Below are positions 2,900-44,472 of a stretch of 49,603 nucleotides of DNA, in pieces. The notes beneath the pieces are model-generated. The model had not been told where the DNA came from. It saw only the letters and a list, made by a program, of their open reading frames with translations, and searched no databases. Source of the DNA: Girardia tigrina. Taxonomy: Eukaryota. Within the stretch, counting starts at the first letter, position 1. Each line of letters begins with the position of its first letter. The DNA lies in the NCBI GenBank assembly GCA_001938485.1, contig MQRK01201053.1, positions 52,745-102,347 of the forward strand, read 5' to 3'. Made by a program: the position numbers and the translations under genes.

Positions 2900-3426
2900 G
2901 TGATCGCCTCAAAAAAGCCTCTAATAATTGTCACTACGAAAAACGATATCCTCTCACAGACAGTTCACGAAAAATTCAGATCGATAATTGATAAAAAACC
3001 ATACAACAAGTATCCCGTCGTCGAAACTTCATCTAAACTCGATATAAATATCGATCATATTTACGATTTGGCAGTGACATTTTGCGATCAAAATGGCATG
3101 AAATTTACAAAACAAGTCACTTATCAATATTCTGAAGGATGTTTGAATCGTGAAAAAGAGAACGAAACACATCGACGAGAATTCGAAAAATTGGTTGAGG
3201 AATATTTGTCAGGGGACAATTTGTTTGAGGAATGGGAGCAGTTTATAAAAGTCGATCAAGTTGGGTTTTATTTGCGTTGGTTTCCTCAAGATAATTTGAG
3301 AGAAATATTTCGAGAAAAACAGCATGACTTTATGTTGAAGAGACGTGGCCTCAATAGTCACCGGTTCAAAGAGATTTTATCTTCGCTTTTGCGTGAATTC
3401 GATCACTTGATTTCTCTGGAAGAGGA
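2900..3426 (+). CDS. RhoGAPp190: p190RhoGAP (ARHGAP5/35 family) exon: C-terminal half of N-terminal GTPase domain plus first FF repeats
   Basis: Acceptor cag at 2897-2899, donor gtaagg at 3427. KKPLIIVTTKND and VVETSSKLDINID match p190 GTPase G4/G5 (human KKPIVVVLTKCD, VVETSARSNVNVD). FF-like RREFEKLVEEY...W follows. Ends phase 2. Confidence 0.88.
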
Positions 3427-3975: not shown

Positions 3976-4344
3976 TGAAGCACAGTAACGATTTCAAATG
4001 ATATCATTTTTTGAAAGCAGAAAAAATATGTAATTCAAAGGAAATTTATTAGAATTTAAAATTTACACAAAAGTGCTTCAAATAAAAACTTTTATCATAA
4101 AAGCCGAGTAAAAAAAGAAACGATTACATAAATAATCACACGGTAAAAAATTTCAATTGTCATTAAAATAGGCGATAATTATAAAAGCATGTTTTTCTAT
4201 AAATAATGATATAGAATTTCATTATATTCTATAGTATAGAAATATATTTATAAATATTAATATTTTATTTTTGTTCACTACAGGATTGTTTTTGTCCAAT
4301 CTGTCTCCACTTTCCAATCACGAATTTTGGCCTTGAAGAGGGCC

Positions 4345-4632
4345 GTATGTCTTTCGCAATTCTTAGAAGCCCTTGAGGAACCTCCGATGAAATAATCGGG
4401 TTGAAAGAATTTCCCAAGGTTCGAATTCAGTACATAATCGAGAATGATACTATTCAATTCAACCATGACGCTGATTGGCACACATTTTCCATGAATCCCA
4501 AAAGTAAAGTAAACGTAAATTCTCGGTAATTGCCAATCACTGTCGCCTTCGTAAATACCAGTGGTCGGTTTGATTCCGTGTTCATTAGTGATTATTTTCC
4601 AAAACATCGTTCCAATATTGTTTCCACAACTT
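4345..4632 (-). pseudogene. TUBB: Truncated, divergent beta-tubulin pseudogene fragment (N-terminal ~100 aa)
   Basis: CGNNIGTMFWKIITNEHGIKPTTGIYEGDSDWQLPRIYVYF...GKCVP...FQPDYFIGG aligns to beta-tubulin [40 protein letters not shown]...FRPDNFVFG. No MREI start; truncated. Confidence 0.9.
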
Positions 4633-4880
4633 TCATATTCTCATCAATTCATACCATGGTTCATAAATGCCTCCACATGTCTTGATAAAATATTCTGCAT
4701 TAAAAATATAGCCAAAAGGCAAAGTTATCTATCCGTTTAAATTACGCATCCAATCTCAAAAATAATAAAGAAATCGATATTGATATATAACTTTATTTAG
4801 CTATCCCAGAACTAACAATAATAATTCATTTAAACAAACGAATTTCTGATAATAATTTTTTAATTATAACTTTACATATT

Positions 4881-20890: not shown

Positions 20891-21451
20891 GTATATGAAA
20901 AATTTAAAAGACATTGCTTATCGAAATTGCAATGCAAATTTCTGGATGTCATCCACGAAAATCCGGATTTAATTTGGTCGCAAGCAATATTTAAATTGAT
21001 CGAAATACATCCTCATAAATCCTGGACCATAAATGGGGGAACAACACCCATCCATATAAATGGCAATAAACATTCAAATGATGCCAAACATGATGATAAT
21101 TCTTTTTTAAATAAAATGGTGAAGGAAATTAACAAACAAGTTGTTTTTGATGAGTTTCCGATTTCCCAAGATGACGCAAATATTCGTGAGGAATGGATTA
21201 AAGATTACTTGTCGTTTCTGGGATCTAAGAATGAATATGAATGCATAATTGAAGAGGTTGTCCACAAACCATGTAATGTAACTTTAATAAACCGAGCTCT
21301 CTCAGATAAAATCCCATCCAACAAAATTGAAGAACTCTCACACAATTCTCATCGATTTTTCATTGCCATTCTTGGAAATAATTCCAAAAATTATGTATCT
21401 TTCAAACATTTTGTTTCATCCCCTTTAACAAATCTACCTTTAAAAATATGC
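20891..21451 (+). CDS. RhoGAPp190: p190RhoGAP exon (last FF repeat and start of pseudoGTPase pG1)
   Basis: Acceptor ttttag ends 20890, phase 0. VYEKFKRHCLSKLQCKFLDVIHEN resembles the human FF3/FF4 junction; RFFIAILG resembles pG1 strand RINLVILG. Donor gtaagt at 21452. Confidence 0.82.
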
Positions 21452-21499: not shown

Positions 21500-21710
21500 T
21501 CTCTTTATTATCTGTTTTAATGAAAAAAATTTTCTGATACTAAAATCAATGTACAAACTCCATCTTCAGATTTATTGAAAGTCTTTTATGATTTAGTTAA
21601 TACATAATAATTTAATGAACATCGTTTTAGTATATAAATGACGATATATAATTTATTTTAGTTTTATCTGAAGATGATGGCGAATCCATCGAAAATAATA
21701 GCAATATATT
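21500..21710 (+). mobile_element. Penelope-like element 3' end with decayed hammerhead
   Basis: DTKINVQTPSSDLLKVF (~21536-21590) is homologous to the GIY-YIG tail at ~29925. CTGAAGA-T-GATGG-cgaat-CCATC-GAAA at 21668-21694. Confidence 0.7.
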
Positions 21711-21916
21711 TTTCTGAGTATTATTGTACTTTTAAATTTTGTTTTAGTAGAATTCTTTGACATATTATGGATATTGATGTCAGTAATATTTTTAATTACA
21801 TCTAGCTTTTAATATTGACAATACGTGCTTTGTCAAATAAAGTGTTATGTGAAAATACGCAAATCCTAAATTAATTAATGACCGAATACGTGTTTTCACA
21901 ATACGTGTTTTCGTAT

Positions 21917-26728: not shown

Positions 26729-28378
26729 TAGGGGCTGGCAAAAAGCATTGCGTTTTTCTATGTCTGTTAAAATATTATCGAAATCTAAAACAAATATAAT
26801 TTAAAACATTTATTTGTGTGAAACATTTATTTTGCCTAAACAAAGTCCCCAGCAGCTTTGATGACAGTCTGGATGAGACTTGTAAATTTTTGAAACTCGC
26901 TTTGTGAGTTCGGCCTTCGATGTTGATTCCAAATATTTTCGAAAATCATTGATTGCCTCTCCTAAATTACCGAATTTGTTTCACAGCGGTAGCATTCGTA
27001 GTTTCAAAAGATAAAGCAATTAATAGCGTTTATGTCGGGGGAGTAGATCGGTTGCTTTAATAGAGACACTTGATTTTGTTGAAACCAAAGTCGAATTAAC
27101 TGTGCTGTCTGAGGTCTGATATTGTAATGAATGACATTACCAAACAGCTTGAAATCATATTCTACAGCAGTGGTTCTTAACCTTTTTAGCTACCGGCACC
27201 CTTAAAATTTTCAAACAATATTCTCGCACCCCTTACCCGAAATTATTGAATTATAAAAATTGAAAAACAAACATTATTCATNNNNNNNNNNNNNNNNNNN
27301 NNNNNNNNNNNNNNNNNNNNNNNNNNNNNNNNNNNNNNNNNNNGAAATAACCAATTATAAATGATCAAAATTTATATTAATGGCTTTTTTGTTGTTGCTT
27401 TTCCTCAATTATTTTTGAAAACCGGGGAATCTTTTTTGAAATAGCCACACGCATATCATTACTAGAATTTTTAAGTTTAGTTTTTTATTTTACTAGCTAC
27501 ACGTGCATTTGTATAATTATAGTTTCGCACCCCCAGATATTCTAGCTCGCACCCCTAAGGGGTGCGTGCACCACCGGTTAAGAACCACTGTTCTACAGAA
27601 ATTGTAAATATCTCCAAGTGTTAATGGATCCACCGTCGTGAAAAAGTTTGCAATCAGATATTCTTCGCCTAGTAATAGTTGGACGATAACCTGTGTCATT
27701 CACCCAAACATGGTCGCATTTTTGTGGAGGTATGTCTCAAAGATAAATCCATTTTTCATCGATCACAATGATATTTTCCTTAGCTCTTGTTGCTGAATAA
27801 AAATTCAACATTTCTTGTCAGAAAATGACTCTGATTCTCTTGTTATTGTTAGTTAAAATGTGAGGAACCCATCTACTGCATAGAGACTTCTTTCCAAGTT
27901 CTTGTTTCGATTTCCAATAATCACTCGTTTCTTCTATGTTTTGTCTCTTGAAATGGCTGACCAGCTTAAGTACCAACATTCTTCAATCATTTAACGAGCG
28001 TTTAGGATTTTCTCTTCTGTAGTGCTCATTCTTGGTCTTCCTGAACCTTCTTTTTGCTCAAAAAGTGTTTACTATTAGAAACTCTAGCGATCTACTGTAT
28101 TCTCCAAAGTCTGACTAAGTTATCTACTCCCTAACTTTTCACAAGAAAGCGATGAATTTCTGTAGCGGAAAAGTTATTTCGTGTTAAAGTTGCAATGAAT
28201 CACATAAGCTTACAATTCATTTTCGGCTGAATCATATAATCAACTCTAATTTATTTATATAAATTTAAATCTTGAACATTTCTGTCTTTTTAATAATCAA
28301 CCTTAGATAATTTACCTAATAAAAATCTACCAAGAAAGTTAAACTTTGATCTTCAGATATTTTTACTGGGCCTTGAAT
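26729..28378 (-). mobile_element. Degenerate mariner-family element interrupted by a hAT MITE
   Basis: TIR-like GGGGCTGGCAAAAAGCATTGCG at ~26731. Minus-strand NIIVIDEKWIY (~27750-27775) and YSPDIN (~27030-27048). The far end is approximate. Confidence 0.7.
27168..27590. mobile_element. hAT (Buster-type) non-autonomous element nested in a mariner
   Basis: Perfect TIR CAGTGGTTCTTAACC / GGTTAAGAACCACTG. 8-bp TSD TTCTACAG (27160-67, 27591-98). GCACCC subterminal repeats. Confidence 0.92.
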
Positions 28379-28711
28379 ATATAAATCTAGAAAAATATGA
28401 TTTTCTTTTCATGAGAAGAAATATTTACTTTTAGAAAAGAATAAAAGATATAGATAAAAAAAATAAAACTTCAACATAATTATCAAACTAAAATTTCCCA
28501 TATATAATGTTAATACTATAAAGATGTTTAGAATAAGAGGTAATAATAATAATAAATGTTAATGAGCATGCTCATTTATTTGGTTACAATAGCCATCAGA
28601 GTAGCTAAGTCTTAATTATGTTGCTTCAGAAAGTAATGCGCTGAGTTATCTATGAATAATAATAATGACTAATGATTATTTTGCTAAATTGGTTTAACGT
28701 TAACTTATCAG

Positions 28712-28989
28712 AAGGTCCATTCAAAAAAATATGAAGTGGAAGTCATATCAGAATTGAGCATGGTAAAACAAATATTTTTGAACTTGACCGAAACGAATGA
28801 CAGATGCTCCATTTTATGTGTCATCGTTCTGGTTGATGTGACCAATGAAGTAGAGCCAGACATGAAGGAGTTAGAGAACTTTCTTGCGAATAACGATTCA
28901 GATATTCTGTTGGTGAAGTATTTAATATGTGATATTGACATTTCCGATCCAGATTCACATGATTTAGAGTTCATGGATTTCATGGAAAA
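28712..28989 (+). CDS. RhoGAPp190: p190RhoGAP exon (pG1)
   Basis: Acceptor cag ends 28711, phase 0. KVHSKKYEVEV resembles human VIDGKMYELSL. Donor gtaaga at 28990, phase 2. Confidence 0.75.
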
Positions 28990-29113
28990 GTAAGATTGAT
29001 CGACCTTATTGTTTTACCACATGCTTAACCATATGTGTGATATATAAATAATTGTTTTAGTCATATTTATGATAATGAAAAAAGTGTTTTGAGTGCATTT
29101 AAATGGCTATGTA

Positions 29114-29284
29114 TGTAACATCAGTGTGGTGACGGCGGATGCTGCAGGTACAAGCACCGATACCGGCACCGGCACCTGAGTGCGCTCTTCAGTTTTCTAT
29201 TTATTAAAATCAAATGTGATATTATTTTATTTGTTTACTTGAATTGTTTATATAAATGATTGTCTAAAATACATTTACTCTACA
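29114..29284 (+). mobile_element. Probable short solo LTR
   Basis: TGT...ACA ends; GC-rich 5' half; ATTAAAATCAAATGT shared with the similar TGT...ACA segment at 34378-34441. No clear TSD. Confidence 0.35.
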
Positions 29285-29687
29285 AATTTTTTAATTGATG
29301 TGAACAGTCATGACAATGTTTCTGTGAGTAAGATATGACATCTCAAAGATTAACAAGAAACTACAGTCATTGGACAGAATACAACCTAATTTTTAGAGAT
29401 TGGAGATTTGAGACTGTTGACGTGTATTATCAAGGTTGCTCAAATATTTATTAATCACACAAATAGAGCTCTCTATTTCAACAATTATTAAAACCTTCTA
29501 AATTATTTTTCATTCTTGTTTGATGTATACGTATATGATGCTAGGTCGTTTCATTACTGTTTGCTTTGATAGAATCAGATTTAAATTTGCTATTTCATGT
29601 AATTTAATAATCATTTAGTAAATTATAAAATAATTGCACATAATATATGAAAACAAATGAACGCCATTTAAAAATATATTTTTTTTC

Positions 29688-29726
29688 ATAATATATTTTG
29701 ACGGTTTAACCGTCATCATCAGATCC
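29688..29726 (-). ncRNA. Inverted hammerhead copy, catalytic G12 mutated to A
   Basis: Minus strand CUGAUGA-U-GACGG(UUAAA)CCGUC-AAAA-UAUAUU. Confidence 0.65.
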
Positions 29727-30048
29727 CTGATTATTTTCTTTTTTATTGCTTTTATCTGCAAACGAGTCCAAGAACACAGTCAAAGAGGTAAAAGAGTAAA
29801 ATTGCTGAGCATAAAAAAACGTGTAACTGTATTATGAACATAAATGATTTTAAGATTTTGTGCAAGCATTTTAAAAATTATTGGGAAAGTGTATCATGTG
29901 AAGCATTGTTGATAAGTTGATGTGATCCAAAATCAATGTTCAAACAGCACTCTCAACTAATTTGTTAAGAGTTTTCGATTAGATTTACGTAAGTGATTGC
30001 ACAATCATTCATTTCTTATATAAAAGCAATAAAAAAGAACATAATCAG

Positions 30049-30089
30049 TGATCTGATGATGACGGTTATACCGTCGAAATATATTATTA
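30049..30089 (+). ncRNA. Minimal type I hammerhead ribozyme (PLE-associated), intact core
   Basis: UGAU-CUGAUGA-U-GACGG(UUAUA)CCGUC-GAAA-U(AU)A-UU^AUUA. Stem I is 4 bp; stem III lies in the palindrome AAUAUAUU; predicted cleavage after 30085. Confidence 0.8.
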
Positions 30090-30161
30090 AAAACCACGAA
30101 AGTTGAACCTTAACACAATAAGACAAGATGGTCCATTTAATGTGAGCTCTTTTATCGATGG

Positions 30162-30355
30162 TGTGAGGAATGTTCTGAATTATTTGTTATTTTACATTTT
30201 GTATGCTGATTCGGATTGTGTCTCTCCTACCCAGATGGCTGATTGGTACATTCTTTAATTCCTACTATTTGAAAGTAATTTAATTTTAAAGGACAATTAT
30301 TTAAAATATATTTCAAATGTATTAATAAAATTTTCAAATTTAATATTTAGTTTTT
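30162..30355 (+). mobile_element. LTR (TGTGAGGAAT family) abutting an integrase fragment
   Basis: TGTGAGGAATG...TTGTGTCTCTCCTACCCAGATGG is shared with other copies. Confidence 0.55.
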
Positions 30356-30359
30356 GATA

Positions 30360-31355
30360 TGAATGGATACCAATACATTTTAGCAATAATCGATCTACTT
30401 ATTAGGTCCATCAGCTTGACCGCAGTGGCCCTGTAAGACGAGAAGACTACACGAAAGGTACTATTTGATAAATTGATTTGGAAATTCGGACCACCAAAAC
30501 AGATACACGTTGATAGATGGAAAACTTTCGAATCAACACTCTTTAAAGAAACGACAAAAATATTTAAGACGGAAATAGTCTATTCAAGTCCTTATCACCA
30601 CAACACTAACGGGATTATAGAAAGACAATTCAGAACAATAAGAGACGCAATGAATATACGATTGAAGGATAATATGCATAGAGATTGGGTAGAAATGTTG
30701 GCAAAAATAGAATTCATGTCAAATGGTACAATTCAAACAACAACTGGAATATCTCCAGTCGAGATAATCTTCGGAAGAAAACTAAGACATCGGTGGAAAA
30801 ACACCACAGAAGGAAAAAGCGGTGAAAAAGAAAATAAAAATACAAATGAAACACACCGAATATTTCAGGTCGGTGATAAAGTCTTGATAAAGAAAGTTAA
30901 CCCAACAAAAGATGATGACCGTTATATGGGACCAGTTAAAATTATAAAGCAAAGACACGAAATAAGTTATGAGATACAACTAGAGGACGATAGGATTTTG
31001 ATCAGAAATGTAGAATGGCTAAAGCCATTTAATCCGAGGGGGATGTAAGGAATATTTTAAATTGTTTGAATGTGTTAATGTACTGATGATGTATGTTGAT
31101 TTGAGTATGCTGAACTTAGAATGGTGATTCTCCCACCCAGATTGAAATTTGTATTTTTTAAATTTAAAGTGATCGAATATTCGAACATAATTAAAATAAT
31201 AAGTTTTTATTTTTTTAAATTCACAATTTAAATTAAGTTTAATATTTTTTAAGAATAGAAAAACATTTAATTAAATTTAAATAAATTTAATAAGATTTAA
31301 ATTAAATTTATTTTACTAATTTGATAACATTTTATAATTTTGTGTTTTTATTACA
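30360..31355 (+). mobile_element. Ty3/gypsy 3' fragment: integrase core and C-terminus, PPT, 3' LTR
   Basis: YILAIID, FGPPKQIHVDR, SSPYHHNTNGIIER, YMGP, RNVEWLKPF. PPT GAGGGGGA immediately before TGTAAGG at ~31045. Confidence 0.9.
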
Positions 31356-32469
31356 AAGGATTTAAATTATTATTTTTTAATTAATATTTTTAAAAATTAT
31401 GTATTTTTAAAAGACGTAGAAAAATTGTTTGAATAATCATGATTAAAGACAGAAATAACGAAACCAATTAGAGCGATGTAAAACGATGAAAGATCTTCTG
31501 AGAGTCGTAATGACTCTAAATGTTGTAGTAATAAAAATTCAAATGAGACTTGTTTTTAATATGGTTCAAAATATTTCCATTGCTTGACCATTTTTCTTTA
31601 ATGGGTTGTTCGATATATTTTTGAAAGAACTACGTATAACTTCGATTATTCAAATTAATAATTTATTTTTTTTTAATTATTGAATTTGTAATTTAACTCC
31701 AAAAGAATTAAATTACGTTTAAATAGTTAATGCAAATATCATTCAACCATATAATTCAGTATTCCTCACAGAGGTTAATAAGTCACTATGTTATTATGCC
31801 ATTTAATAGGGTCTGTTAAAAATATTGGTGACATAAAACATACTACATAAGGAAATAAATATCTATTTAATATATAATTATGGATAGAAATAAAAATAAG
31901 AATGCGTAAACAATCTCCAGATTCAAAATTTATTAAAAATGAATGTACCTTGCTGAAATTCCAACATATTTGTGTAGCAATGATTACTATCCACAACAAA
32001 TATTATCTTTTCAAAATGTACTTCCAATGTCTTCTTATCTAAAAATTAAGTTGAATTTTTCTCGAAAATGAAGACTATTTTTTTAATTTTTGTAAATTTG
32101 TTATAAATTTATCGTAAACAATGAAACGTTAAAAATTGCTTTCTTTTTAGTGCAAAATTATTAGTAAATCTAATAATTTCTTTCCTGATATCAATGAATT
32201 CTGTGCTCTACTCTACTTCTTATCTTGTTTTAAATCGGGTGGACAACAACTCATTGAAAAACTGAAGCAAGTTTTGAGATTATATGTTACAGAGATCATA
32301 GCTAGTTTCTAGTCGATTGGAAAAGCGTAAAAAAATTGGTAAAAAAAATTTTTTAAAAGAAAGCGTTCGAGAACTTAGGCAAATAATAATATTCCTTTTA
32401 GAAGTAACTGGCAAAGTTTTGTAACTGAAAGAGGTTAAAAGAGTTTTAAATTCTGAAATGGTTTTGAAC

Positions 32470-32750
32470 AATTACAAAGTTTGTGGCCGTAAAAAGCATA
32501 TGCTCTGGGTCTTCGGACACTAAGATGACTTTGCAGAATGTAAAGAGTGCTTAATTTGATAGGGGTTCTTGAAAACCATCAGGAATACAAATATCTGCTT
32601 AAAGACACAGTAACCGAAAAACTGTAAGGGACTGTTGAACAAGGAAGTGAATATCTGAAAATGCTTAAACCGCATATGAAAGTATCAAGCTGTATATATA
32701 AAGAATAGACATTTGGACACGGCGCCTCAACGATAGAGGGATGTATCTTT
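32470..32750 (+). mobile_element. Possible Merlin/IS1016-like transposase remnant
   Basis: WVFG (~32507) and GHGASTIEG (~32715-32741) recall Merlin WVFG...HTNTIEG motifs. Heavily decayed. Confidence 0.35.
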
Positions 32751-33442
32751 TATTAATGCTCCATAGAGAACTCACATTTATAACGCATAGAGGTATATTA
32801 ACATTTCACTTTCATCGTTGCAATAAATGCACTTGTTACGAATTGATCGAATATTTGTATATATTTAATTTTTTGTTGTTAAAAGGTATAGTAGAAAAAA
32901 TCTTTATATATATTTATAAAATTATTTTGATAATTGTAATTAAAAAGGAAAAAAATCGTTCGATTCTGGAAAAAAATCCAGTTAAATTGTAATATTTTAT
33001 TTTGAGATTGAAAAATGATATTTTTGATAATTGTAAAATTCAAAAAAATGACCTTGAGTTTGTTTTGTTGTGTTGAATTGAAATACATGTAAATACGACA
33101 GAGTTTTGATTATTGATGAAAATAAATTCGATACGTGACGTTATCGTTTTCAATTGATTAAAAAAGTCAATTTCTTTTCTGGATGCTGAATTGTGCTAAT
33201 CGCGATGTTAAAAAAGACTGCAAATATTAAAATTATAAAAACATTGAATGATACGATTTTCGATGCGCTGAGTCTTCTCGCCGATATTATCAAACTCGAA
33301 TCGATTTTAAATCGAAATTTGAATAGAAATAATCAAATAAACGGCGCAGTGTTTCTGTGTGATCGGCGATTAGGAATTGTTCTAATAAGATTGGTTTTTA
33401 CAATGAGAAATGTTTATCAATCAATTTGAAAATCGATACAAA

Positions 33443-34130
33443 ATGGTTAAAGTATTCTGTGAAAGATTCGAAAGATTTAACGACAAATTGAATTCGATAA
33501 ACGTTATTTTTCAAACGCTTCATCCATTCAAATCGTCATCGACTAAATACACGAAAAACATCCGATATAATGCAATCGATTGTCGGGCCGGATTATTGGC
33601 GTCGATCGCCAATAACGATGTGAATTTCTGCAAAATCTCCTCGAACGAGAGAGCGAGTGTTGAATCGGTCGACTTGAAAGACAAATTCGTGAGTGTCGAT
33701 CCAATTTTCTCGATTAAATTCCGGTTGAGTGTTGCCTGGATCGAGTTCAGTTGCGGTGGATCGATTCTGCTGGTCGCCTTGGTGACCGATGATTGTCTAT
33801 TGGTGACTGTCGGGCTGTTCCGTGTCGAGAGATCGCTGCTGGAGAATGGAGAATCGAAATTTTGTGAATATAAACCGAATACCGAGAGCCAGTTGGTCGA
33901 TTTGCGGTGGCATCCAAATGAGAAAGAGTCATTTTTAGTGGTTTTGAACGATACGGTCTCACGGTGTTGTGTGAAAGAAAACAAAATCGATATTATAAAT
34001 CAGAAATCGAATGCGTTTTATGTATCCTGGAGTCCGAAGGGATTTGTCATTTATCAGTACGACAATTTGATGAATGAAAAGCGCTCGAGTGCGATCATAG
34101 ACATTTTTGGCTCTCTCAGAGCATCTCTAT
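33443..34130 (+). pseudogene. NUP214: Nup214 (CAN) N-terminal beta-propeller fragment, intronless and disrupted
   Basis: LVDLRWHP, VSWSPKG and YQY..L.EK resemble Nup214 (MKWNP, VCWSPKGKQL, VQYLPTLQEK). About 10 residues after WSPKG are missing. A 1-nt frameshift at 34104-34108 restores DIFWLS (cf. DVLWIG). Confidence 0.7.
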
Positions 34131-35599
34131 GGGCCCAGATGCTCCGTTCTTCCGGACAATTCGGAAACAGCACTTATACAGCGAAGGTCTTACAAAACCA
34201 AGATAAAGGGATCATGATTGGTCATTTTTAGAAGTCAACTGATCGGTGCCCGTGCACTGAAGGCATCCAAAGCCGTGTGAGAAGATCAGAAGTTATTGTA
34301 TTTTTTCAGGTTTTCACCCGATACAGAGTAAATGATTCAATACCCTGTGTGCAAATGCTGAGTATCGTAGTTTACTATGTCACAGTCGGGGGAGGCTTAG
34401 CTTTAGTAAAATATTAAAATCAAATGTTAGTTGTTATTACATAATACTATAGGTCGAATTTGGATTTTCGCTGAATAGTATAAAATAGTACTTTGGCTTC
34501 ATTAGCATTTCTTATAAAAGTTGGTAAAAACATTGTCAATTTTTTACTTATTTAATAATTAATAATTTGAGGATTCAAGTTTTACATTTCATTGAAGAAT
34601 AATTTTGATTTTGGTAGACGACAGACGAACAAACGGACGTGTTCATTATTGCAAAACTCATTTGAGTTTAGTTTCGTCTTACACATATTTCGAAATTTCT
34701 TTTCTCGATCTTTGATAGTCTATTGCTAAAGGATATTTGGGGGGGGAGTATTTTCTCTCTTGCAATACATTTTCTTGATCACATCTCAGGCTTAAGAACG
34801 GTTCAATTCTGTTTATCTGTTTAAATTAAATGTCAATTATTTACAACAATTATTAATATCGTACTTTCCAATTGTCGATATTTAGAATGAATGTGTAATT
34901 CATACATCACTCACCGGTCTCAGTTTCGTTATCTAATTATAATTTATATAGCATTGGCAACTGTGATTTATGGAAGCAATTCTAGATTTCACATTCCAAT
35001 TATTCGTGAATTTATTGAAGTATTAAATTAACATTTGAAAGACATTGTAGATGATTTATTACAGTATTTGTGTAGCAAGCATTCATATGTAATTATTATA
35101 CATTAATCTTGAAGAAACTAACCCCTTGTCTATGTGCCTGACTACTTGTATCTAATACGAGAAGTGACACTTCTAAGGCATAATTTGTAAATTCATTCTA
35201 TGAATAAACAAATTTAGAATGTTTGAATTATAACTTATTATAATCGGTCTCTTCTTTCTATTTGTGATACTTATTCCTTAACTAATATGTGACTACCTAA
35301 TCGCATTGTAACACAATTTATAAATTGAATGCCATTTTAATTAACCTTTTACTTCATACTGTGCCTATTTTTCATTCCTCCAAACGATTATTAAGAGACA
35401 GTTAATTTAGAAATTCAGTTTTTACTATTTGTCAAGTTTTACTTTTTTACTAAAATTACAACTAAAAAGTGTTGTTTTTTTATATTTTACAAATTATTCC
35501 TCAAAATCAGTATTTCTATTTTATTAAAAGCAAAGTTTAAAAAACAGTATCCAGAAAACTCATATTTTAAATGAAAACTATTTATTAAAAAATTAAGAT

Positions 35600-36817
35600 T
35601 TGGTCTTCCATCCATCTTGTTATAATTCATTTGTAATTGTTCCAATACTGTGTCTTTCATCTATTTCGTTCTCAACATTTAAATTTACATACATACAATC
35701 CAGATCCTCCATTAATATAAAAATTTATTGGATCACCGACAGAAAAACCAAGTCAATACTGAAAATATTTATTTATCCGAATTTTTCACTTCACCCCACA
35801 GTATTTGAACAACAACTGTTCATAACAATGTTTCTGAGAAACTTTTTTTGTAATTTTTATCGAACTTAAACCGGAAAAAAATATTTATTAATAGTGAATT
35901 TTAATTTCGTTTTGTAAATTTTAGTTTCACCAAAATTTTTCTCGAATCTTTTATTGCTTTTTTTCATTCTAAATTCTTGTTATCTTTAATAAATAATTTC
36001 AATGATCTTTAATTTGGATTCAGAAATTTTATATTTCTAGTTGTCTATATCTTCAAGAATTTCCCACCTGATCTTGAGTTCTTAACACATTGATTAATAG
36101 TCTTATCAAAATCTTAAGATTCTAACATACACATTCTTTTTCCAGTAAATGCCATTCTTCGGTAAACTTCCAGATATGACGATCCTAATTTTTTTCATGA
36201 ATCTTCGCCATTTGATATCGATTTAATTTTTTATTTATGCCAAATATTTCTGTCTTTCATTGAATTCTTAATCATTTTCATATAATTGTATCTAATAATA
36301 ACTTTTCCTGCTACAGAACAAACATCTTATCTTTGTACAGTCTCTCCGCATGTTTCCTCCTCGCAACATGCCTGCTTATAATAACTAGTTGTTTGAATTT
36401 TTGACTTACTTTATAGTTCTTCTGTTTCAGCTTTCTCCATAAATTGATAATATCGCTCAAAATCTTTAATAAAGGTTTCCAAACGAGCATTGTCTCCATC
36501 GAAATTAACTAGACATTTGATTATGATGTTTATTTTTGAAGTGGTCACCGTGTTAATAACTCGGCACGTTTCTGTGTCCTTTTTAAAGTCGCTAGACTCT
36601 TTATGAAACTTCATTTATTTCAAAGCAATAAAATGTGACAAGAACTTTAAATTACTAACGCGATACAAACTGAATATTCAAACAAATACAAATATTGGTT
36701 ATATATTTATTATAACACTAAATAATTTAAATTAAAATCGTAAAATAAACAAAAATAAATAAACAAAATAAACAAATTTCAATCAAAATACAACAATTAT
36801 CAAACAAACCCCTCATA
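35600..36817 (-). mobile_element. Ty3/gypsy 5' remnant (LTR plus decayed gag)
   Basis: LTR start TATGAGGGG at 36817, as at 276 and 2601. gag FDGDNARLETFIKDFERYY is homologous to KGDNVETFIEECESFF at 2003-2368. Confidence 0.65.
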
Positions 36818-36940
36818 ATTTGAATTCACAATTAGGAAAAAAAACTACATCAATGAAATAAATTATCAAAAATAAAAAGCAGAAATTTATTACATGCAAT
36901 ATTTATTTATATTAATATTTTATATTGTTCTACAATACAG

Positions 36941-37307
36941 TGTTGAATTCAGTCATAAATCAGTTCATTGTGAAAATGTTTTTGTCTTTTGGGACTGTCC
37001 AATCTTTGATTTTAGTTTCAGGGAGAAGTATACCGTTATGTCTTTCCATGCTGAGAGTCATCATCGAATTATCGATCGGATTGTGTCAAGTGCTCAGAAG
37101 TTAACAGAACAAAGTGTTATTTGGTTAATCACAGTCTGTGGAGACTCATATGATTATGATGCAGTTGTAAAGTTCTTATTGAATTCGATCAAAGACTTCT
37201 TTCTGCCATGGCCGTACGCCGCAACTAAAAACGATATAACAATTGTGGGCTCATCAAATGAAATGATTATACACTGTTACCGAGTGGTATTCATGTCGTA
37301 TCATCAG
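36941..37307 (+). CDS. RhoGAPp190: p190RhoGAP exon (end of pG1, start of pG2)
   Basis: Acceptor tacag ends 36940, phase 2 (AA+T=Asn). IWLITVCGDSYDYDAVV resembles pG2 IVMCLMCGDPFSADDIL; VFMSYH resembles LLSYH. Donor gttcgc at 37308. Confidence 0.85.
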
Positions 37308-37676
37308 GTTCGCATTAATTTGACTTTCAATTATTTTTTGCTCATACGTTATTAAATCAACCCATAAACAATGGTTTTTAAATTATATTTTTCATATATT
37401 TTCTCGTAATTATGTTGCCAAGAAGCCAATGCTGTCTGAGATTATAAAAGGATTAGTTTATGAGTCTCATGACCTTAAGTATCATTGAGTCGTGTTGGTC
37501 GGTACAGATTAATGTTTTGTTCGTTTTTTTTCTCTTTGTAATATAATTTGATCTAGAACTTATATTTATTTCTTCGATTAAAAAACAGTTAAATGAATAT
37601 TTTCATTGATACTCAAAAAAGGAATCTAAAATTTACTTAAACTTTAATATATGAATACAACAAATATGACAAACAA

Positions 37677-38404
37677 ATATGAATGAAAATCAAAAGAACC
37701 GACGCTATGAAATTTGTTCTGCCAATCATCTTCGCAATAAAAAGGATCCATTTCTTGATTGTATTGTTATCGGTGATGAGAGATGGATCCTGTATGATAA
37801 CCGATGTCGATCTGCACAGTGGTTGGACAAAGATGAAGTACCGAAACACTTTCCAAAACCGAAACTAACACCCCGTAAGGTTATGGTGACAGTTTGGTGG
37901 TNNNNNNNNNNNNNNNNNNNNNNNNNNNNNNNNNNNNNNNNNNNNNNNNNNNNNNNNNNNNNNNNNNNNNNNNNNNNNNNNNNNNNNNNNNNNNNNNNNN
38001 NNNNNNNNNNNNNNNNNNNNNNNNNNNNNNNNNTGATAACGCTAGACCTCATATTTCAAAAGTGACTCTTCAAAAGCTTAATGAGTTTGGCTATGAAACC
38101 CTGCCTCATCCACCATATTCACCAGACCTCTCGCCAACGGACTTCTACTTTTCAGGCATTTGTAGAACTTCCTTCGTGAAAAACTTTTCAAAAACCAAAA
38201 TGATGCTCAAAATGCCTTCCAAGAATTCGTTGCTTCGAGAACCGATACATTTTATGCTGATGGAATAAAACAACTTGTTTCTCGTTGGCAAAAATGTATT
38301 GATGCCAACGGTTCATACTTTGATTAATAAACTTTTGTTTCTGTGAATTTGCACGTCTTTGAAGTTTGTGTCCCAAAACCGCCATTATTTTTCGACCAAC
38401 CTAA
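37677..38404 (+). mobile_element. 5'-truncated mariner transposase (D,D34D) with 3' TIR
   Basis: IVIGDERWILYDN, KVMVTVWW, DNARPH, HPPYSPDLSPTDF. TIR ...TTTTCGACCAACCTAA-TA. Contains an N-gap. Confidence 0.92.
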
Positions 38405-38559: not shown

Positions 38560-38925
38560 AAAAATCTGTACTTCCATGTAGTAATCTGGAATCTAGATCA
38601 TGTAAGATAGAGAGTTGGTTCAGAAATAAATCTTTCACTCTAACTGCGATATTAGTTTCTCAATATAAATGTAATGAATGTGACGCAACATACATCAAAG
38701 AGACTTGTCGTCATCTCTATAAATGATTACAGGAACATAATAAAATGGAAATTCATATTAATATTGTTCAACATAGAAAGAATTGCTTAAAACACAATCT
38801 TATTCAACTTTATTGAAAGTGTTTTGAAATTACATAAACAATGTTTAAGTATATAAATGTAAATATATCATTTTTATTTTAGCCTGAAGACAACACTTAA
38901 TCTATGAAATTGATAATAATAAATT
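38560..38925 (+). mobile_element. Penelope-like GIY-YIG remnant with decayed hammerhead
   Basis: QYKCNECDATYIKETCRHL..LQEH (38662-38740). CTGAAGA...GAAATTGATA at 38884-38915 with stems broken. Confidence 0.7.
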
Positions 38926-39015
38926 ATGATAAGCGTTTTTTTGTGTTTTAATTTTATTTTGATTTTTTGTAAACTTTACTATGTCTGAACAGGAAAATAA
39001 TTAATTTTCTTCTAG

Positions 39016-40124: not shown

Positions 40125-41068
40125 TTGGGTTGGCCAAAAAGTCATTGCATTTTTTACTAAAATATTTATTATCAAAAAATAACATGGATGCACAAATATT
40201 TTTACACGATATACTGTCCATTATTTTCAATCACTTTCTTCCACCTTTCCGGTAGCTTCATTATTCCTGATTCATAAAAACCTTTGCCTTTGTCAGCAAA
40301 AAAACCGCCTAGGAACGATTTGATGTCATCATCACTGGCGAATGTTTTTTCTGTTTAAGGAATTCTGCAGTGATCTAAATAAGTGAAAATCCGTTAGGGC
40401 CAAGTCTGTAGAATACGGTGGTTACGGCAAAACCTCCCAACCCAGTGATAAGAGTTTCTGGCGAGTGGTCAAACTTGTATGCGGTCTTGCGTTATCATGC
40501 TGAATTACAACTCCTTTTCGATTTGCCAATTCAGGACGTTCCTGTTGAATTGAATGAGCCAATTTCTCCAGCTGACCACAATATCTGTCTGAATTGATGG
40601 TTTCATTCCTCGGAAGGAGTTCAAAAAACACAATTCCTTTAAAATCCCACCAGATGGAAAGCATAACCTTCTTTTGGTGAATTTCTGTTTTTGTGATCGT
40701 TTTGGCAGGCTCACCACGTTTTGTTCATGATCGTCGGTGTTCCCCATTGTTGTAAACAATCCATTTTTCGTCACCCCTAATCAAGCACTTCAAAAATGGA
40801 TCACTTTGTTCTCGCTTCAAAAGAGAATCGCAAATGTCTATACGTTTCACCAAATGAATTTGAACAAAACATGACGAATATGCTTATTTTGATTTTCCAT
40901 TTCGAAATTAATAAATTAAAACAAAATCAATTAATATTTTGTATAAACAGTCTGAAAATTGAGGTTTCAGAATATATAATTGAATTTAAATTTTATCACA
41001 TCGTTTTATATTTTCAAGCTTTTTATTAGGACGTACTCAAAAACGCAATGACTTTTTGGCCAACCAAA
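40125..41068 (-). mobile_element. Internally deleted mariner with both TIRs and TA TSD
   Basis: TIRs TTGGGTTGGCCAAAAAGTCATTGC / GCAATGACTTTTTGGCCAACCAAA. GDEKWIVY, MLSIWWD, HDNARPH, YSTDLAL. N-terminal HTH deleted. Confidence 0.93.
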
Positions 41069-42670: not shown

Positions 42671-43369
42671 ATGAATATAATCATAAATATAATAAATGAT
42701 TATTGTAGTTATATTTTCTTCTTTCAAAAAAAATAAGGAGTTAGAGACGATAAACATGTATAATATGTAACTAGAGAAATCAAAGGAAAAATTACTTTCG
42801 AAAAATCAAACCTCCATTTAAACCCTTAAACCTGAAATAACGTTACTTTGGTCTGTTTAAACTGGCGAAGTCAATTATAGAAATAAATTAAAATCTAACA
42901 TTTGAATTGCGTTAATTTATATTTTTTTATAAATAAAACTTACGTCAAGGAGAAGTATTAAAAAATTGAATGATTAAATGGAAAAATTGTTTTTGATGGA
43001 CATTTCTGCAAATTGTAATCTCTATATCATTGGAAGACCTTTAGAACTAAAGAGTATGTAAGGGGGTCAAGAAAATCATTAGAACACTAGAAGAAAATGG
43101 GAAACGGTAGTTGATGAATGGAAATTTTGTAATATAATGACATATCTTCGTCAACTTTGCATTAATTAACTAACATGGATTTTTAGCGTTTGGTTTAATA
43201 GGACTTATATTGTAGTTCTAATTTCTATATATTTTAAAAGACCTGTATCTTGAAAATAAATAGGAAAAGGTTGTACAGATTAAATTAAAGTTTGTATATT
43301 TAGTAAGAAAAAATCTTGATTTAGATAATGTTTAAAAGATATTTTAAACTCAAATATATTTGTGGCCAA

Positions 43370-44472
43370 TATTTACCGGAAAAATACAATAAAGCGTACT
43401 ACTTCATGAAAAATGAATATGATATGGAAGAATTCGCAAAACAAGTAGAAGTAATTGTTCGGAGTTGTGTAACATGTCAAACATCAAAAACATATACAGG
43501 AGCCACCAAAGAAACAATAATAAACTTGGTTTCCCAACAGCCGTTCGACGACATTTATATCGATTTTTGTGGGCCTCTACCCGTTACAGAGGGAAAGAAA
43601 TACATTTTGGGCATTATTGATAGATTCAGCCGATACATCGTACTAACAGCCGTGAGCAATCAAGATGAAGCGACAGTGATGAATACGATTCAGTAAAAGT
43701 GGATATTCAGATTCGATGCACCAGGATGTATACATGTGGATCGAGGTAAAGTTTTCGAATCTAGATTTTAAAGTTTTCGAGTATCCTAGATCCATGTTAA
43801 TTGAGATACGGTTTTCAAGTCCATATCACCATAGTGCGAATGGGATAATCGAGCGCCAATTTTGAACGATTCTGGATGCATTAAATGCCTCTCTGAAAGG
43901 AAAAAATGGAAGAAACTGGGTGGATTTACTCCCAGAAATCGAATTTAGTATGAATGCATCCATACAAAAGACTATTGGATGCAGTCCGACAGAAATTATT
44001 CTGGGAAAAAGGATAACACTAGATGGTTCGCGTCATTATGAGTTAGACAACACGAAAGTAATTGAAAAAGTCCTAATAATTGAAACAGAGTCACCAATGT
44101 CAGTAAAACCGAGGCACGAATTTAAAGAAGGTGATTTAGTTTTAGTAAGAATAGAAAACAGACAAAAAGGAACGGACTGGTATGAAGGGCCGTATGAGAT
44201 TATTAAAAAACAACATGATCGTTGTGTAGAAATGAAGAATAAGACGGGTCGAATAATTTGTAGGAATATAGAATGGCTAAAGCCTTTTAAGGAAGGGGAG
44301 TATAAGGATGACTAATTATAAACAATCTATATTATATTAAATACATATTGATATTTATATTTAAAAAGGATTCACAATATTTTTATTAATTCTCCTGAAT
44401 TGTTGTTTAAATAATATGGTATAATTGTGGATATAAATAAATCTTTGAAAAGGACTTGTGTGCCTCCTTACA
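43370..44472 (+). mobile_element. Ty3/gypsy 3' fragment: integrase (zinc-binding CxxC, core, GPY), PPT, 3' LTR
   Basis: CVTCQ, IYIDFCGPLP, IIDRFSRY, SSPYHHSANGIIER, YEGPYEII, RNIEWLKPF. PPT GGAAGGGGAG before the LTR 44301-44472 (TA...CA). Stops and frameshifts. Confidence 0.92.

Follow-up and report, generated by a model that had tools for sequence, protein, structure and literature searches.

The analysed window, a stretch of 49,603 nucleotides from Girardia tigrina (contig MQRK01201053.1, forward strand), consists of AT-rich eukaryotic DNA (21-33% GC) with many transposon remnants and carries exons of a host gene, between two of which lies a short Penelope-like insertion with a hammerhead motif (Table 1). 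The exons were placed by means of P0002, the protein of a relative and the sole match, which maps in order to 20891-21451, 28712-28989 and about 37022-37310 and continues from the second of these exons into 37002-37310 (E 4e-24). The intron behind this exon ends in an AG acceptor at 37020-21 of matching phase. In two DNA runs, single contigs at single-copy depth span the region from the upstream exon to the left arm of the insertion (28500-29714/5), and the left junction is thus seen in both DNA samples. Taken together, the exon order in P0002, the splice sites and the spanning contigs place the element in an intron, on the sense strand of the host gene. The upstream exon is also found inside longer contigs of runs X3 and X4 (positions 200-477 of 1339 and 1633-1910 of 1940), which are termed RNA-like here, their RNA nature being a guess. 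The host gene is expressed in these RNA-like runs, where spliced contigs exist, although the source animals may be without this insertion.

The name of the host gene follows from a more distant exon at 2900-3424, which is 55% identical to P0001, a protein that in turn matches the ARHGAP35 chain 6d4g_A (E 2e-36). The gene is likely p190RhoGAP, the link of this exon to those flanking the insertion being inferred from strand and order. P0002 gave no informative match in Pfam, the PDB or the Atlas (best Atlas score 0.85, at lead level only), motif searches of the window returned no RhoGAP motif, and word and PDB searches with 28712-28987 were without a match. An earlier reading of the window, made from its letters alone (referred to below as the sequence-only reading), had placed the element in sense orientation in an intron of p190RhoGAP; the intron and the strand are borne out by P0002 and the DNA contigs, whereas the gene name is carried over from the exon at 2900-3424 by strand and order.

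Table 1. Features of the host gene, the Penelope-like insertion and its hammerhead motif (positions in the window).
Feature	Position	Strand	Remarks
Upstream host exon	28712..28989	+	AG acceptor, GTAAGA donor at 28990; 43-45% identical to P0002
Host intron holding the insertion	28990..37021	+	about 8.0 kb
Downstream host exon	37022..37310	+	3' end approximate; P0002 match
Whole Penelope-like insertion	29650..30093	+	444 bp; ends approximate (29650-29655, 30089-30093), from depth jump and loose ends
Inverted copy of element 3' end	29650..29755	-	106 nt: pLTR end, damaged hammerhead, tail
One-sided tail	29650..29681	-	32 nt past the right-arm end, about 36 nt past stem I
Damaged hammerhead copy	29686..29726	-	G12 to A (29699); stem I broken (29726, 29687); antisense to host transcript
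GIY-YIG C-terminal remnant	29756..29982	+	stops and frameshifts; stop codon 29980-29982; from six-frame translation
Local hairpin	30044-48 with 30053-57	+	pairs first five core bases, rivals stem I; present in both arms
Stem I	30049-30052 with 30086-30089	+	4 bp, one G.U
CUGAUGA box	30053-30059	+	
AUG	30059	+	26 nt upstream of the cut site
Unpaired U after A9	30060	+	absent from the sequence-only reading
Stem II	30061-65 with 30071-75	+	5 bp (6 with a U.G)
GAAA box	30076-79	+	
A/U-only 6-nt palindrome (stem III)	30079-30084	+	
AUU triplet	30083-85	+	U17 = 30085; cut 30085/30086

Several other elements are found around the insertion. The same host intron holds, on the same strand, an open frame of 274 codons at 33407-34228 with a beta-propeller-like sequence (Pfam THOC3 propeller, E 0.016), which we take to resemble the N-terminus of Nup214; it is either a nested gene or a retrocopy. 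An open reading frame at 36876-37352 had been considered as part of this beta-propeller gene, a view that was discarded, as P0002 shows the frame to be the next host exon. Remnants of LTR retrotransposons (integrase; gag and pol pieces) occur at 30437-31045, 43325-44312 and 99-2601, one of them about 70 bp to the right of the Penelope stub, and mariner-like pieces at 37670-38324 and 40425-40780. A degenerate frame on the minus strand at 4281-4640, inside a host intron, is presumably tubulin-like and likely a pseudogene.

The insertion is composed of a sense body of 338 nt, which ends at stem I, and of the element's 3' end, which stands in front of this body in inverted orientation. The inverted repeat of about 72 bp described in the sequence-only reading was found, its arms (29682-29755 and 30020-30093) being 74 nt long with five differences (93% identity), and the change of G12 to A in the left arm was recovered as well. 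The left arm, however, reaches further than had been described, to about 29650, as the tail of the element. Family contigs have loose ends at 29650/29651 and at 29755, and those that continue past 30087 carry letters matching the reverse complement of 29652-29687, which shows that the left arm carries a tail of 32-36 nt and that the right end is without one; a family variant at 29659 provides further evidence for the tail. As in other PLE insertions, an inverted 5'-truncated copy is thus present at the 5' end and a tail of 30-40 bp at one end only. As a separate observation, the tail-less end (30089-30093) coincides with the 3' edge of stem I, 4-8 nt beyond the cut site. A search for a target-site duplication gave only one possible 5-mer (29650-54 and 30090-94) in A-rich DNA. 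A direct repeat of 8 bp (29664-71 and 30133-40), which would place the tail on the right, was rejected as a target duplication because its left copy lies inside family sequence. Among the 15 listed of 136 joints there was no empty allele; six of the 15 change strand, two of which reflect the mapping of the tail between the arms, while the other four, with other breakpoints, point to other inverted copies of the family.

The family is abundant. In the two DNA runs, the depth over 29639-30107 amounts to 3e5-2e6, as opposed to 95 and 51 in the flanks, and the bin containing the hammerhead exceeds the single-copy flank about 8,800-fold and 10,000-fold, rough ratios that are not copy numbers; roughly, the family likely comprises thousands of copies. 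The letters of the loose ends before 29755 (41 and 35 contigs, about 30 letters each) translate as a YIG motif, and since other copies run on upstream of this point with YIG, the present copy is cut inside the GIY-YIG endonuclease. Behind the family YIG motif, the remnant at this locus continues as R..EH-type, an assignment made by motif. The GIY-YIG remnant that the sequence-only reading had seen between the arms is therefore upheld by the motif in other family copies just upstream of the truncation, but not by database matches: three stop-masked frames gave no Pfam match, and a word-based protein search with 29792-29917 found nothing. The hammerhead core starts 70 nt after the stop codon on the same strand, as a pLTR hammerhead downstream of the endonuclease. 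The endonuclease motif, the tail and the inverted-copy layout all support the Penelope origin proposed earlier. The clade of the element cannot be assigned from the present copy, as the telomerase-like reverse transcriptase was lost by the 5' truncation, and the CCHH zinc-finger cysteines expected between GIY and YIG would likewise fall upstream of the cut point; the family might figure among the consensus families of PMC4209133 or PMC8557442.

The plus strand, which is the sense strand of the host, carries a complete minimal type I hammerhead at 30049-30089. It is the sole complete match to the descriptor on both strands of the whole window, against a background of 0.005 complete matches per window in 200 simulated windows of matched dinucleotide make-up. 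Every element of the core listed in the sequence-only reading (CUGAUGA, 5-bp stem II, GAAA, AUU triplet and 4-bp stem I) is present, as are the features that characterise minimal PLE hammerheads, namely an NUH triplet, the CUGANGA and GAAA boxes, an extra base between 9 and 10.1, the pair G10.1-C11.1, a short helix I and a palindromic helix III. The palindrome itself exists, but the 8-mer quoted for stem III is not the working one, because it includes A14 and U17, which are unpaired in the active fold; this role falls to the 6-mer. An Infernal scan of 27000-33000 against Rfam, which had been proposed as a check of the motif, returned no hammerhead family at E values up to 5, which weakens only the claim of a canonical hammerhead type, and a snoRNA match in the same scan (E 3.8) is attributed to chance.

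Two further observations concern the edges of the motif. The 5' edge of stem I, beside the local hairpin 30044-30057, coincides exactly with the end of a CAG, and the intron of Penelope in Drosophila virilis ends at the same place (PMC4209133). The DNA upstream of the CAG is A-rich, unlike a usual splice acceptor, and no joint among the 15 listed of 136 ends at this edge. At the other side, 20 contigs of run X3 follow the window up to the cut site, part from it directly behind 30085 and continue with a different 3' strand of stem I and then with letters resembling the tail (agreement 0.65); they most likely represent a subfamily and are no proof of cleavage.

The layout can be compared with published systems. 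PLEs with a C-terminal endonuclease (Penelope/Poseidon, Neptune, Nematis) show an inverted, 5'-truncated copy at the 5' end and flanking inverted repeats (PMC8557442), and a tail of 30-40 bp at one end has been described (PMC8557442; PMC11167929). The Girardia copy shares with the units described in PMC8557442 the 5' truncation, the inverted 5' copy, the one-end tail and a pLTR hammerhead behind a C-terminal GIY-YIG domain, and differs from them in that only 444 bp and no reverse transcriptase are kept. Pairs of minimal hammerheads on opposite strands, 100-700 bp apart, are likewise on record (PMC4209133). With the minimal hammerheads of metazoan PLEs (Cervera and De la Pena 2014, PMC4209133) the motif has in common the type I arrangement, a helix I of 4-5 bp, a palindromic helix III, the unpaired base between 9 and 10.1 and the pair G10.1-C11.1. 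In contrast, its helix II has 5 bp (6 with the U.G) instead of the 7-8 bp given for Schistosoma (PMC4209133), its palindrome consists of A and U only, a U occupies position 17, and the G.U in stem I is private to this copy. The Poseidon element PAc of Anolis (PMC11167929) likewise has its start codon at the beginning of stem II, directly behind the part of the core that contains C3 and G8, a cut site 26 nt past the start codon and a tail at one end. In PAc, reverse-transcription starts located 111-118 bp into the ORF flank the tail (PMC11167929), whereas the tail-less end of the present insertion coincides with the 3' edge of stem I and is thereby only about 30 nt into the frame. The intronic position on the host sense strand is shared with the amniote intronic hammerheads and CPEB3, which are candidates for a host role in pre-mRNA processing (PMC6765202); unlike these, the present motif belongs to one decaying copy of a mass repeat and shows no sign of selection.

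The state of the two arms was compared with the family majority, which has G12, the same base as the right arm at 30049 and a Watson-Crick pair at 30050/30088. The left hammerhead copy deviates from it at 29699, 29726 and 29687, and the G.U in stem I of the right copy is a decay private to this copy and differs from the family state. Both arms carry a change at 30088/29687; the two changes differ and do not compensate each other, which weakens stem I and adds a mismatch to the hairpin. None of the five arm differences is compensatory, four of them being mismatches and one a G.U in the hairpin. The 338-nt body has at least 13 changes and the 106-nt inverted piece at least 4, about 3.8% each, as estimated from 40 of 105 rows with depth-weighted majority letters over mixed subfamilies. 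At 3.4-4% divergence, the 13 core bases would stay intact by chance with P 0.59-0.64; G12, which is part of a CG dinucleotide, is replaced by another base in 6-14% of the family depth in four runs. One intact and one mutated core are what neutral decay of about 4% would be expected to give, and nothing observed requires selection.

When metagenome contigs were searched for this core together with its stem II, the search yielded 23 loci, not all of which are shown to be Penelope-like and several of which have short upstream flanks; none of the 23 belongs to this Penelope family beyond 27-49 nt of core. An inverted copy of the locus's own hammerhead was found upstream in five of the 23 (L005, L007, L010, L014, L021), four of them distinct, since L007 and L021 are the same element. 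The inverted copy lies upstream in all five loci and is damaged in the core or stem II in four of them (in L014 the CG including G12 is lost) and truncated in the fifth. As the search pattern required an intact core, this asymmetry between intact and damaged copies is built in, and the same applies to the way in which the sequence-only reading came to notice the present locus. Together with the layouts described in PMC8557442 and PMC4209133, these five loci mark the inverted arm as the usual by-product of a Penelope insertion. Within the window itself, a second Penelope-like remnant lies in the preceding intron (21540-21720), likewise in host-sense orientation, with similarity to the endonuclease end, a CUGAAGA core, the extra U, a 5-bp stem II and GAAA; its motif at 21668 is without palindrome, stem I or inverted partner. 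A more decayed Penelope-like relative is located at 38828-38960.

Folding was evaluated with nearest-neighbour energies, which omit the tertiary core and proteins and are indicative only. With the left arm included, 63 of the 74 arm pairs are predicted at a probability above 0.9 and stems I and II drop to 0, the long hairpin fold having -130.9 kcal/mol and a z-score of -9.5. The long hairpin with the upstream arm, as postulated in the sequence-only reading, is accordingly predicted to form and to hide the ribozyme. The further proposal that pairing with this arm could neutralise cleavage is not supported, as the prediction gives a misfolded ribozyme in the absence of the arm as well, so that there is likely little cleavage to neutralise. 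In the model without the left arm, the probability of stem I is only 0.0002-0.0015, because 30044-48 pairs with 30053-57, a local hairpin with a pair probability of 0.6-0.9; the long hairpin is thus probably not needed to silence the ribozyme. Compared with two free monomers, the double-hammerhead fold is less favourable by about 15.5 kcal/mol, and the duplex of the palindrome contributes -0.8 kcal/mol. However, the family-state stem I is also unfavourable in the same model, by about 12.2 kcal/mol, which means that the model discriminates poorly between active and inactive copies. The transcribed strand has kept core and stem II intact, which counts against an inert ribozyme, and the protein of an active element could act in trans. 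The folding estimates agree with published activities of minimal hammerheads and PAc: single minimal hammerheads did not cleave and dimer activity was low (PMC4209133), and the PAc hammerhead of Anolis requires the protein of the element (PMC11167929).

With a probability of roughly 85%, we read the locus as a 5'-truncated copy of an abundant Penelope-like retroelement that was inserted, together with its own inverted 3' end, into a host intron, and that is likely dead and decaying neutrally, with a hammerhead that likely does not cut the host pre-mRNA. Both pieces would have been laid down in one insertion event by the reverse transcriptase and endonuclease of the element, with a putative template switch at 29755/29756. 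In the pre-mRNA, the arms are expected to zip into a 74-bp hairpin with the four mismatches and one G.U, which would incidentally hide the ribozyme. Even without this hairpin the ribozyme would be off, owing to a 4-bp stem I with a decayed G.U and a core paired by the local hairpin, and activity would need a second copy joined via the 6-bp A/U palindrome, or the protein of the element.

A different view would see the inverted arm as an antisense guard in cis: the ribozyme is capable of cleavage, either in dimeric form or with the protein of the element, the arm transcribed first zips it shut, and the insertion was for this reason tolerated and spread. The predicted loss of stems I and II in the presence of the arm and the strong z-score fit this view, as do the transcription of the left arm about 260 nt earlier, the change of G12 to A, which leaves a G.U pair and the hairpin unbroken, and the left junction in both DNA samples. 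It is nevertheless unlikely, since the arrangement arises mechanically in this class of PLEs and recurs at other loci, the arms have four non-compensated mismatches, and the ribozyme is predicted to be off without the arm; the sense-strand remnant at 21668 with core, stem II and GAAA, moreover, has no inverted partner, although it is a weak control because its stem I and palindrome are lost. A selected silencing role of the inverted arm is accordingly an unlikely one. A broader form of the idea is just as doubtful: the inverted pLTR would be a built-in antisense lock, sense-intronic insertions would survive mainly with an upstream arm, and the local anti-core hairpin with the CAG may be a second switch released by splicing or by the protein of the element.

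The ribozyme could also be irrelevant and the hairpin matter as dsRNA, through ADAR editing, siRNAs that silence the family, or altered splicing of the host. The predicted 74-bp hairpin is near-perfect and the host gene is expressed in the RNA-like runs; in transgenic Drosophila, Penelope siRNAs mapped precisely to inverted regions (PMC3681739), and by analogy it is plausible that the predicted hairpin gives dsRNA or siRNA. As an explanation of the locus this is somewhat more doubtful still, as it is one locus among thousands, so that its own share would be small, and its hairpin is decaying. The nearest donor is, moreover, about 660 nt away from the insertion, and the acceptor 6.9 kb. The RNA-like runs (12, 12) and the DNA runs (10, 11) have A>G places in similar numbers, a weak comparison in which the contigs pool all copies, and the RNA-like contigs over the unique intron DNA 29103-29504 amount to zero, which says nothing on editing either way. 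The 74-bp terminal inverted repeats and the high abundance would also suit a MITE-like, non-autonomous mobile unit that is copied whole. This is very improbable, because most contigs at 29755 run into the endonuclease and not into the inverted arm (41 and 35 loose ends) and the breakpoints differ from one inversion to another. The two ends of the insertion are also dissimilar, only one of them carrying a tail, and the search for a target duplication gave no clear case.

For the decayed retroelement copy preferred here, the general layout, the opposite-strand hammerhead pairs and the siRNA from Penelope inverted repeats are already published. A literature search that covered titles, the beginnings of abstracts and passages of the papers cited here found no paper that tests the silencing of Penelope ribozymes in introns by an inverted arm. 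As found, the locus matters little, being one of likely thousands of scraps with a published layout, and its use is that of a test case. In the literature, the function of the Penelope hammerhead is called unclear (PMC8557442) and cleavage is dispensable for insertion in vitro (PMC11167929). If inverted arms were enriched genome-wide among intact cores in sense-intronic position, this would speak indirectly for cleavage by Penelope hammerheads in vivo.
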